Virus record (IMG/VR): IMGVR_UViG_2675903595_000003
Source: a virus
Lineage: Duplodnaviria > Heunggongvirae > Uroviricota > Caudoviricetes
DNA length: 10,107 nt
Strand: one strand, 5' to 3'
This document shows positions 2,819 to 3,720 of this stretch, piece by piece. Position 1 is the first letter of the stretch; each line of letters opens with the position of its first letter. Made by a program: the position numbers and the translations under genes. The notes below the pieces were generated by a model. That model was not told the origin of the DNA and ran no database searches. It saw nothing but the letters and a program-made list of their open reading frames with translations.

Positions 2819-2847
2819 TTGACAGTTTCAGGTTTGCAGTTTACATT
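2819..2847 (+). promoter_or_regulatory. candidate sigma70 promoter upstream of the ORF6N gene
   Basis: Consensus -35 TTGACA (2819-2824), exact 17-nt spacer, -10 TACATT (2842-2847). About 200 bp upstream of the ATG at 3054. A weak hairpin plus T7 run at 2883-2910 could instead terminate a short transcript. Confidence 0.3.
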
Positions 2848-3053
2848 TCCCCGCGGTGCTCAAAACACCTCGAAAGCGGTATCCACACCCGATAGCCATG
2901 TGGTTTTTTTGTGTCCAGAATTCTTGGTTTATGACCGGGTGTGCGGCTAATACAATACCAGCAATGGAAATACGCCCGCCGACTTTCGACGGTTTTGAGC
3001 GCCCGGTCACCCTCTCAAAAGGGGTAAATCAAAATATTCGAAAGGACATGTCT

Positions 3054-3617
3054 ATGAATCGCACGTCTATTGAAAAACTCCCGTCACTTACGCATAACCA
3101 TCTTCCTGTCATGACAACAGAGCTGCTGGCTGATTTGTACGGAACAGAGCGCCAGCGTTTGACAAACAATTTCAATCGAAACAAAGAACGGTTTATAGAA
3201 GGTAAACATTTTTTCCTGATAGAAGGTGATGCGTTACGAGAGTTGAAGAACGAAAACTCTTTAAGAGTTTCTGTGAAAATTGCCCGTAACGTTCGCTCCC
3301 TCATCCTCTGGACAGAACGTGGCGCAGCCCGTCACGCCAAAATGCTCGAAACCGATCAGGCGTGGGAAGTGTTCGAAAAACTGGAAGACTGTTATTTCAA
3401 CCAGAAACAGCCACCAGCGGCACAAAACACATCTATCGAAAATGATGGATGCGCATTACTGAGCCACTTCGATAAACACGGTCAGGTTGAGTTCACGGAA
3501 AAGGTACCCGCCGATGCGATGGTATGTACTCTGGAACGGTTTAAATTTTATCTGGAGCAACACGGGTGGATCGTTGCCCGTAAAGAGCAACTGGTGGAGC
3601 GGTTGATGCGGTTTTAA
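3054..3617 (+). CDS. ORF6N-domain protein (KilA-N/antirepressor-like DNA-binding N-terminal domain; C-terminal region of unknown function)
   Basis: In frame with supplied ORF 2856..3617. Start placed at ATG 3054, with AAAGGA at 3041-3046 seven nt upstream. The N-terminal ~100 aa fit the ORF6N domain pattern as recalled (HLPVMTTELLADLYGTERQRLTNNFNRNKERF...WTERGAARHAKMLETDQAWEVF). Flanked by its own candidate promoter and terminator. Confidence 0.7.
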   Translation: MNRTSIEKLPSLTHNHLPVMTTELLADLYGTERQRLTNNFNRNKERFIEGKHFFLIEGDALRELKNENSLRVSVKIARNVRSLILWTERGAARHAKMLETDQAWEVFEKLEDCYFNQKQPPAAQNTSIENDGCALLSHFDKHGQVEFTEKVPADAMVCTLERFKFYLEQHGWIVARKEQLVERLMRF

Positions 3618-3692
3618 AAATTTTTTCCGAAAACTTTACGATCGTAAAAAGTTGAATATCCTGTTAAGAGTGGTTACTACGCCACACAGCTT

Positions 3693-3720
3693 AAACCCGC
3701 CGATGAGCGGGTTTTTTTAT
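3693..3720 (+). terminator. intrinsic terminator downstream of the ORF6N gene
   Basis: Stem AAACCCGC (3693-3700) / GCGGGTTT (3707-3714), loop CGATGA, T run through 3718. Confidence 0.65.

Follow-up and report, generated by a model that had tools for sequence, protein, structure and literature searches.

An sRNA-Xcc1-family RNA is predicted to gate an antirepressor-type gene in the late leader of a lambdoid prophage

In the immI operon of phage P1, the antirepressor gene ant is reportedly repressed by a small RNA, C4, a finding attributed to Citron and Schuster in 1990; C4 action is said, in that work and in that of Riedel et al. in 1993, to lead to polarity on ant. C4 is cut from the leader transcript by RNase P. 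Antirepressors bring about prophage induction that is independent of the SOS response and cross-talk between co-resident prophages, including those of Shigella and pathogenic Escherichia coli. The repression of ant by C4 in immI is also described in PMC8201110. In the prophage Gifsy-1, the isrK promoter transcribes the antirepressor-like gene anrP, the short IsrK RNA supplied in trans activates anrP translation, and AnrP expression raises the expression of antQ and induces the prophage (PMC4825925). Papers on another RNA, sRNA-Xcc1, describe it as trans-acting and integron-borne in Xanthomonas and suggest a role in virulence, and a study of APSE phage found it upstream of an ORF6N gene to which no function was assigned. 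Here we describe an sRNA-Xcc1-family RNA in a 10,107-nucleotide (nt) stretch of viral DNA (IMG/VR record IMGVR_UViG_2675903595_000003; the whole stretch is called the window below), which represents the late-regulatory region of a lambdoid prophage. We propose, with a probability of roughly 0.7, that positions 2819-3720 form an RNA-gated antirepressor cassette of the P1 immI/Gifsy-1 isrK design, in which the sRNA-Xcc1-family RNA replaces C4.

A scan with Rfam models placed an 84-nt antisense RNA of the sRNA-Xcc1 family (RF02221) at 2933-3016 (77.4 bits, with a cut-off of 53; E = 5e-14). The match is full length, covering model positions 1-87 of 87, and the same scan gave no match to C4 (RF01695, clan CL00128) at E <= 1 over 2933-3016. 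This RNA, the C4 RNA and all promoters, terminators, pairing sites, leader RNAs and the ORF6N gene given below, are on the + strand. The predicted fold consists of a closing stem, two hairpins and a 3' tail, CACCC. Two elements of the RNA are exactly complementary to a pair of sites upstream and to a pair of sites downstream, and the order of the sites is identical on the two sides. The loop of hairpin 2 (a', CTTTCGA, 2983-2989) is the complement of TCGAAAG at 2870-2876 (site a1) and at 3038-3044 (site a2). The junction (b', GTTTTGAGC, 2992-3000) is the complement of GCTCAAAAC at 2858-2866 (site b1; 11 pairs, -16.1 kcal/mol) and of CTCAAAA at 3014-3020 (site b2). Both b sites are presented in 7-nt loops, b1 in the leader hairpin GGTG-CTCAAAA-CACC (2855-2869) and b2 in CCCT-CTCAAAA-GGGG (3010-3024), which forms as a local hairpin when the RNA is folded. 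Site a2 extends into the Shine-Dalgarno sequence AAAGGA (3041-3046), which ends 7 nt before the ATG (3054) of a gene for a 187-amino-acid (aa) ORF6N-domain protein homologous to AnrP (3054-3617). Hence, as in C4/IsrK-type systems, two recognition elements match site pairs on both sides of the RNA, and the downstream pair lies over the ribosome-binding site of an antirepressor-type gene. When the entire leader is folded, the minimum-energy structure joins b1/a1 to the RNA (z = -2.67), and the computed duplex energy with the RNA is -32.1 kcal/mol for the upstream pair versus -14.2 kcal/mol for the downstream pair. We consider it highly likely that the leader has the architecture of an antisense switch.

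The sites are tied to the RNA by comparison across related loci. A search with a pattern built on the conserved hairpin-1 core returned 120 viral-contig stretches; together with earlier loci, these gave about 100 distinct RNAs, 86 of which were parsed by a rule-based procedure. A replication set contained 56 RNAs from one-genome-per-species bacterial contigs. We counted the loci whose own flank contained an exact complement, 7 nt or longer, and compared them with non-cognate pairs. The a' and b' sequences vary widely among the 86 parsed RNAs. A complement of a' was nevertheless present downstream (a2) in 69% of viral loci versus 3.9% of non-cognate pairs (57% versus 2% in the bacterial set) and upstream (a1) in 76% versus 4.7% (bacterial, 84% versus 5%). 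For b', the corresponding values were 65% versus 8.4% downstream (b2; bacterial, 43% versus 3%) and 70% versus 8.0% upstream (b1; bacterial, 73% versus 8%). Complementarity therefore covaries across ~140 related RNAs, taken from contigs of viruses and bacteria. The geometry is fixed as well: b lies 5' of a on either side, the upstream pair stands 60-130 nt ahead of the RNA, and the end of a2 is a median of 9 nt from the next start codon. In close relatives of the window, almost the sole difference is a', with matching changes in a1 and a2. The a' loop is ACTTTCGA in the window, ACTACTGA in E. coli EC12 and CGACTACTT in phage Nil2, and both a1 and a2 read TCGAAAG, TCAGTAG and CAAGTAG, respectively. 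We rejected the idea that the repeated sites are protein-binding repeats in the DNA, given that they covary with the RNA loops, that the helices extend through G-U pairs and that they lie on one strand. Most Xcc1-type RNAs also have an (A/C)CC(C/A) tail after the closing stem, which is no more than suggestive of excision.

According to the view taken of Xanthomonas and Xylella, the RNA would act mainly in trans on host genes, and its place beside an ORF6N gene would be incidental. The literature on sRNA-Xcc1 favors this, as does the abundance of the RNA in E. coli O157:H7 EDL933, where an sRNA-Xcc1 locus has 40,293 RNA-seq reads and a ribosome coverage value of 0.02 (PMC5331693). The same data also count in favor of our proposal, as they show a related element that is strongly expressed and hardly bound by ribosomes. 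Moreover, the Xcc1 RNAs of Xanthomonas, Dyella and Rhodanobacter keep b1/a1 upstream and have no b2/a2 complement downstream. Since these integron-type copies lack b2/a2, a cis target is not universal in the family. These orphan decoy-plus-RNA units, at loci L207, L219, L222, L227, L243, L245, L262, L267, L302 and L312, presumably represent the integron-cassette form described in Xanthomonas. However, loop and junction sequences vary between loci and fit the flanks of the locus in question, which one would not expect if the RNA were directed at conserved host targets, and a2 is located at the Shine-Dalgarno sequence of the gene that follows. The downstream genes are also overwhelmingly of antirepressor type: among 68 distinct open reading frames (ORFs) 3' of such RNAs, Pfam identified Bro-N in 11, P22_AR_C in 11, ORF6N in 9, Rha in 7, KilA-N in 7, AntA in 6 and P22_AR_N in 5. 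We give a mainly trans-acting host regulator very little credence; additional host targets may exist.

Some loci carry more than one Xcc1 module. At L073 (1040-1510), a first module without a gene is followed directly by a promoter that leads into a second, complete module, whose loop code is different, and at L186 two modules with different codes (8278 and 8660) each precede a 127-aa ORF. A paper on Xylella reports five sRNA-Xcc1 copies in a row.

In the window, the cassette (module 2) stands behind a second RNA module (module 1). Module 1 begins with a pR'-like promoter, TTGACC-18-TATATT (2578-2607), the counterpart of the isrK promoter. It continues with a c4-a1b1 target motif (2601-2653; Rfam, 50.1 bits, cut-off 46.7), an isrK-type leader RNA that overlaps this motif (2614-2690; 77.5 bits, cut-off 50) and contains the tR' terminator (2669-2690), and a C4 antisense RNA (2716-2799; 71.0 bits, cut-off 45), a member of RF01695. 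A b2-type C4 target, TTGGAAC (2803-2809), is the complement of C4 positions 2771-2777. The pR'-like isrK promoter is conserved in all related loci of our alignment (A2). The gene homologues fall into two layouts. Layout A, found in the majority of the gene homologues, including Gifsy-1-like loci with isrJ after the gene, consists of isrK, C4, ~60 nt and the gene; it has no second promoter, and transcription is from the pR'-like isrK promoter, as demonstrated by experiment for Gifsy-1 (PMC4825925). Layout B consists of isrK, C4, ~140 nt, Xcc1 and the gene and is found in the window, identical IMG/VR contigs, loci L047-L051 and E. coli EC12. In alignment A2, the C4 modules share the logic of the Xcc1 modules, with b1 in a hairpin loop followed by a1, a terminator, the RNA, b2 and then a2 at the Shine-Dalgarno sequence.

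In alignment A2, the layout A locus L039 is near-identical to the window up to ~2826, a stretch that takes in C4 and its b2 site. Beyond this point, L039 has the C4 a2 site (GAAACC), a Shine-Dalgarno sequence and a start codon, whereas the window has a promoter and module 2. Because the L039 homology stops there, we take module 1 to be truncated at ~2826, with its promoter, decoy and RNA kept and its a2 site, ribosome-binding site and gene lost. Phage Nil2 carries both modules complete, in the order isrK-C4-antA-promoter-Xcc1-antB, which suggests that the layout of the window arose by deletion or recombination between tandem cassettes. A homologue of Gifsy-1 orf45 (2720-2950; 76 aa) starts inside C4, at ATGs 2720 and 2732, which correspond to Gifsy-1 transcript positions 107 and 119-121 (PMC4825925). 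It crosses the module 2 promoter and leader into the Xcc1 RNA, ends 100 nt before the gene and is probably no longer a functional coupling ORF.

In columns 230-330 of alignment A2, layout A loci have a complement of the C4 hairpin-2 loop directly 5' of the Shine-Dalgarno sequence of the antirepressor gene (GAAACC in L039, ATCAACCA in L016 and ATCACCG in L069), and this placement suggests that anrP-like genes are controlled directly, in addition to the published orf45 route. In L066 and L067 (1249-1500), C4 is followed by an ORF of ~63 aa (MTNLPHDYYVNLVK...) that ends beside the start codon of the antirepressor gene and may be a different kind of icd/orf45-like coupling gene. The same two loci have ryfA matches upstream, on the opposite strand.

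The module 2 promoter, TTGACA-17-TACATT (2819-2847), agrees with the sigma70 consensus at 10 of 12 positions. Transcription is predicted to start at ~2854-2855, and blocks of E. coli homology start at 2855. The promoter match alone is not beyond chance, the region containing 3 promoter-like sites versus 1.8 +/- 1.7 in shuffles. In addition, part of the -35 hexamer aligns with a non-promoter sequence, GTGATA, in the layout A loci of alignment A2, and most homologues, being of layout A, rely on the pR'-like isrK promoter (PMC4825925). These points would fit a plain late-leader gene that is reached only by Q-dependent read-through from pR', the match at 2819 being due to chance and the complementary sites being functionless. 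However, a sigma70-like site (at least 8 of 12 positions) is present just 5' of b1 in 92% of 59 distinct modules, versus 7-10% of control windows, and, with one exception among the modules scoring at least 8 of 12, its -10 hexamer ends 10-15 nt 5' of b1. Four layout B relatives have divergent promoter sequences, and all have kept near-consensus hexamers. Finally, covariation between the sites and the RNA loops was seen in each of two independent collections. We find the promoter at 2819-2847 convincing because its position before b1 is kept across modules, not because of its own match score, and we consider a plain late-leader gene to be highly improbable.

A sequence-only reading of the window had proposed that this promoter, the 187-aa ORF and a strong terminator form an independent unit inserted into the late operon leader, and that the 200-nt leader could be regulatory. 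The promoter is borne out by its conservation before b1. The ORF runs from ATG 3054 to the stop codon ending at 3617, and the intrinsic terminator that closes the unit (3693-3720) has an 8-bp stem with 5 G-C pairs followed by a T-run. The suspicion about the leader was justified, as it houses the Xcc1-type RNA between two copies of its target sites. With its own promoter and terminator around one gene, the unit has the layout of a lambdoid "moron". It is not fully independent, since it is also on the pR' read-through transcript. Nor is it a lone insertion; because the pR'/tR' region is an isrK/c4-a1b1 leader followed by a C4 RNA, the unit is the distal half of two stacked RNA modules. Homologues transcribed only from pR', which that reading had named as evidence against itself, do occur among the layout A relatives, whereas the window has the layout B variant. 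Overall, the observation was confirmed and the reading of the unit was partly supported.

Downstream of a1, the leader contains a terminator-like or attenuator-like element (2883-2910), read from the sequence, with the stem CCACA/TGTGG, a conserved loop, CCCGATAGCCA, and seven T residues. A run of at least five T residues follows a1 in 55 of 59 modules. The 45 leaders that we analyzed all have a stem adjoining the T-run; the stems vary, and the loop CCCGNNAG is conserved. The stem of the b1 hairpin varies too, with fifteen distinct versions across the 45 leaders. These stems were found directly, the MAFFT alignment of the leaders not being structure-aware; the sole pairing that RNAalifold gave for that alignment was an invariant CGG/CCG. 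Because a weak hairpin and a U7 tract follow b1/a1, some transcripts are expected to stop as a short leader RNA, which would be ~57 nt long (2855-2910). The terminator loop (window 2888-2895; 45 leaders) carries a conserved CCCG(A/T)(A/C)AG motif, the CCG of which could pair with an invariant CGG just 3' of a1. This motif may form a pseudoknot or be a protein-binding or Hfq-binding feature.

The presence of the terminator-like element after b1/a1 is also compatible with a different output of the same pairing, namely premature termination of transcription upstream of the gene, as in P4, where the CI RNA pairs with seqA and seqC. The polarity on ant reported for C4 in P1 points the same way. The Gifsy-1 authors, too, call IsrK a structural homologue of P4 SeqA and discuss that model. 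However, a2 consistently overlaps the Shine-Dalgarno sequence, and there is no terminator between b2/a2 and the start codon in the window. We regard termination as an unlikely principal output; the two outputs can coexist. As far as sequence comparison goes, a promoter, decoy sites, a terminator-like element and the RNA are in place, and so are targets over the ribosome-binding site that covary with the loops of the RNA.

The sequence-only reading had also seen an ORF6N domain at the N terminus of the protein, guessed at an antirepressor-type function and left the C-terminal ~70 aa unassigned. All three points held. The ORF6N match (PF10543) scored 74.4 bits, with a cut-off of 27.8 (8.8e-21; residues 13-97, model positions 5-86 of 86), and a PHROGs search matched phrog_2379 (anti-repressor) at full length (4.4e-85; residues 2-187). 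In an AlphaFold2 model with a mean pLDDT (predicted local distance difference test score) of 70.7, the N-terminal domain (residues ~10-116) is confident and is followed by a disordered linker (115-130) and a small C-terminal domain (133-186) with low confidence (pLDDT ~60). A Foldseek comparison of the model with the PDB gave nothing below E = 0.4 for the C-terminal domain, and a profile search of PDB sequences gave zero matches. The protein has thousands of relatives, and near-full-length ones (185-195 aa) are common in prophages of Escherichia, Shigella and Salmonella; the best match, named from Shigella sonnei, is 99% identical. Relatives often share only the N-terminal ~125 residues and have other C termini, such as P22_AR_C in AntB of phage Nil2. 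Over residues 2-184, the protein is 49% identical to that encoded by the isrK-C4-ORF-isrJ loci L069-L072. We take these loci to be the Gifsy-1 locus because of their layout and their span of 918 nt, versus ~910 nt for the Gifsy-1 transcript (PMC4825925). Two other start codons were considered. The in-frame ATG at 3048 is an unlikely start, lying 1 nt after the Shine-Dalgarno sequence. An N-terminal extension of 30 aa from the in-frame ATG at 2964 was rejected, as that ATG lacks a Shine-Dalgarno sequence and falls within the RNA structure that covaries.

The RNA switch could be real and the ORF6N protein something else, for example a regulator that binds DNA, a toxic effector like KilA or a factor for defence or exclusion. 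ORF6N is a DNA-binding fold related to KilA-N, the C-terminal domain has no assignable function, and the "anti-repressor" labels in PHROGs and GenBank are mostly predicted, as is the status of AnrP itself. However, AnrP, a full-length homologue, increases expression of antQ, which is transcribed early, and induces Gifsy-1 with no need for the isrK locus. Classical Ant, Bro-N, Rha and P22_AR genes also stand behind the same RNA modules, and the P1 circuit, which is of the same type, serves a proven antirepressor (PMC8201110). We conclude that another function for the protein is rather unlikely, though worth keeping in mind, and that from its sequence relationships it is fairly likely to be an antirepressor.

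By analogy with P1 and Gifsy-1, we infer excision and stability of the RNA, a block of translation, competition by the leader, antagonism of a repressor and reinforcement by Q. In the proposed sequence of events, the sigma70 promoter would start transcription at ~2854, and part of the transcripts would end as the short b1/a1 leader RNA. Read-through transcripts would carry the 84-nt RNA and the ORF6N gene. The Xcc1-type RNA would be cut out of the transcript and be stable, like C4 of P1, and would pair with b2/a2 in cis and in trans, so that translation of the antirepressor is blocked in the lysogen; premature termination may contribute to the block. The leader RNA would act as a decoy, like IsrK in Gifsy-1, its predicted pairing with the RNA (~-32 kcal/mol) being stronger than that of the target sites (~-14 kcal/mol). 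Once there is more leader RNA than free antisense RNA, the ribosome-binding site would open. The ORF6N protein would then inactivate a CI-type repressor, and the prophage would be derepressed. Q made after derepression would allow pR' transcripts to pass tR' and the leader terminator, giving more transcription of the cassette and thus a positive loop. The a' loop would be the specificity determinant, consistent with its being the place where close relatives differ together with a1 and a2.

Several observations weigh against this proposal. The downstream duplexes are short and A/U-rich (a2, -8.8 kcal/mol; b2, -6.0 kcal/mol), and in the window alone the downstream sites do not go beyond composition shuffles, 170 of 1000 of which reach the observed value; the case for a2 and b2 therefore comes from the comparative data, not from the energies in the window. 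The fold of the leader alone (60 nt) is weak (-8.8 kcal/mol; z = +1.1), and a simple terminator scan did not pick up the leader hairpin at 2883-2910. The integron-type RNAs described above have no downstream sites. The published Gifsy-1 mechanism proceeds by way of translation of the upstream orf45; here, no ORF starts between 3016 and 3054, and hence there is no icd/orf45-type coupled ORF between the RNA and the gene. For Xcc1-type modules, we infer transcription start, processing, stability, pairing and repression alike. AnrP is only a predicted antirepressor, and the binding of a repressor by an ORF6N protein of the AnrP-like family is likewise a prediction from sequence relationships.

The genes around the cassette are those of a lambdoid late region rather than of an integron cassette. 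Upstream are genes for a DnaB-like protein (40-1572), RusA (1826-2197) and the Q antiterminator (2166-2573; PF06530, 2.7e-52). Downstream are tRNA-Met and tRNA-Arg genes (3807-3961), followed by genes for a holin, lysis proteins, an HNH endonuclease, terminase and portal. The HNH endonuclease ORF (5966-6316) directly precedes the genes for the small and large terminase subunits and the portal, which is the usual HK97-type packaging order. The window contains two runs of N. That at 3991-4453 interrupts a third tRNA gene starting at ~3964, and the identical IMG/VR contig L003 has four consecutive tRNA genes; that at 5389-5741 falls within a lysozyme-like ORF (5229-5861). The 75-nt untranslated stretch between the ORF6N gene and its terminator (3618-3692) matched no Rfam family; the small RNA isrJ fills the equivalent place in Gifsy-1-like loci.

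A query with positions 2574-3800 matched, in part, 1349 of 5426 complete E. coli genomes, and module 2 alone gave megablast matches in 152 of the 5426, at only 80-90% identity and with no annotation there. An exact 72-nt search for the specificity variant of the window found none in the one-genome-per-species bacterial contigs. The gene and the cassette are thus common, not exotic. Should our reading be right, prophage analyses miss these elements, because they are unannotated in RefSeq genomes of E. coli.

More broadly, the chances seem to us about even that sRNA-Xcc1 makes up a second class of C4-type phage immunity RNA, one that is widespread, and is not a free-standing trans-acting virulence RNA. 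On that account, it would always come with a promoter of its own and a decoy leader of high affinity, made up of b1/a1 and a terminator; in phages, b2/a2 would lie on the ribosome-binding site of an antirepressor-type gene; the loops would be interchangeable specificity codes; and stacked or orphan copies would work in trans to shut off the antirepressors of rival phages, a form of RNA-based cross-immunity. The truncated C4 module in the window, the tandem Xcc1 modules of L073 and L186 and the arrays in integrons and Xylella would then be examples of such copies. If this is true, an Rfam family that occurs in many Proteobacteria, and has been labelled as virulence-linked with its target not known, gains a cis target and a mechanism. 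The triplets of loop and sites would be a readable specificity code that predicts which prophages silence each other's antirepressors. The stack behind Q would also suggest a positive loop, from antirepressor to Q to read-through to more antirepressor, and induction could be switch-like. In the literature searched, which included few subscription journals, we found no decoy-RNA-target arrangement for sRNA-Xcc1 and no link to C4, and an earlier description is possible; the view of sRNA-Xcc1 as an immunity RNA of the C4 type, whose specificity code can be read, has apparently not been described before.

Among described systems, P4 and P22 share parts of the design. As with the P4 CI RNA and seqA/seqC, an RNA processed from an untranslated leader would pair with transcript sites both upstream and downstream; in P4, however, the outcome is premature termination that protects the replication genes, whereas the downstream site in the window is the ribosome-binding site of an antirepressor gene. 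Like immI of P22 (sar, Mnt, Arc and ant), the cassette would be a second immunity region of a lambdoid phage, with a small antisense RNA helping to keep an antirepressor off. The sar RNA is made from the strand opposite the ant ribosome-binding site, and protein repressors dominate there; in contrast, the RNA in the window is co-directional and loop-paired, and Mnt/Arc-like genes are absent. The integron cassette RNA of Xanthomonas campestris belongs to the same family by covariance model, but the RNA in the window is in a prophage, directly 5' of an antirepressor gene with a pairable ribosome-binding site.

The closest parallels are P1/P7 immI (c4-icd-ant1/ant2) and Gifsy-1 (isrK-orf45-anrP-isrJ). 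As in immI, one promoter would serve a decoy (a1/b1), an RNA with a' and b', targets (a2/b2) at a ribosome-binding site and an antirepressor gene, and the loop sequences would set specificity, as in the heteroimmune pair P1 and P7. Unlike in immI, the RNA belongs to sRNA-Xcc1 (RF02221) and not to C4 (RF01695), its target is the Shine-Dalgarno sequence of the antirepressor gene itself and not that of an icd-like upstream ORF, and the antirepressor is an ORF6N protein, whose gene follows a truncated C4 module in the late leader of a lambdoid prophage. With Gifsy-1, the window shares the position after the Q gene, the pR'-like promoter, isrK leader with terminator and C4-type RNA (2578-2809), a homologous protein (49% identity) and a short leader RNA that is a possible activator or decoy. 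It differs in that its C4 module stops after b2, a second promoter, leader and Xcc1-type RNA would control the gene, there is no orf45-anrP translational coupling, and no isrJ follows the gene. Relative to both systems, the new elements are the different RNA family, the proposed direct occlusion of the gene's own ribosome-binding site and the stacking behind a truncated C4 module.

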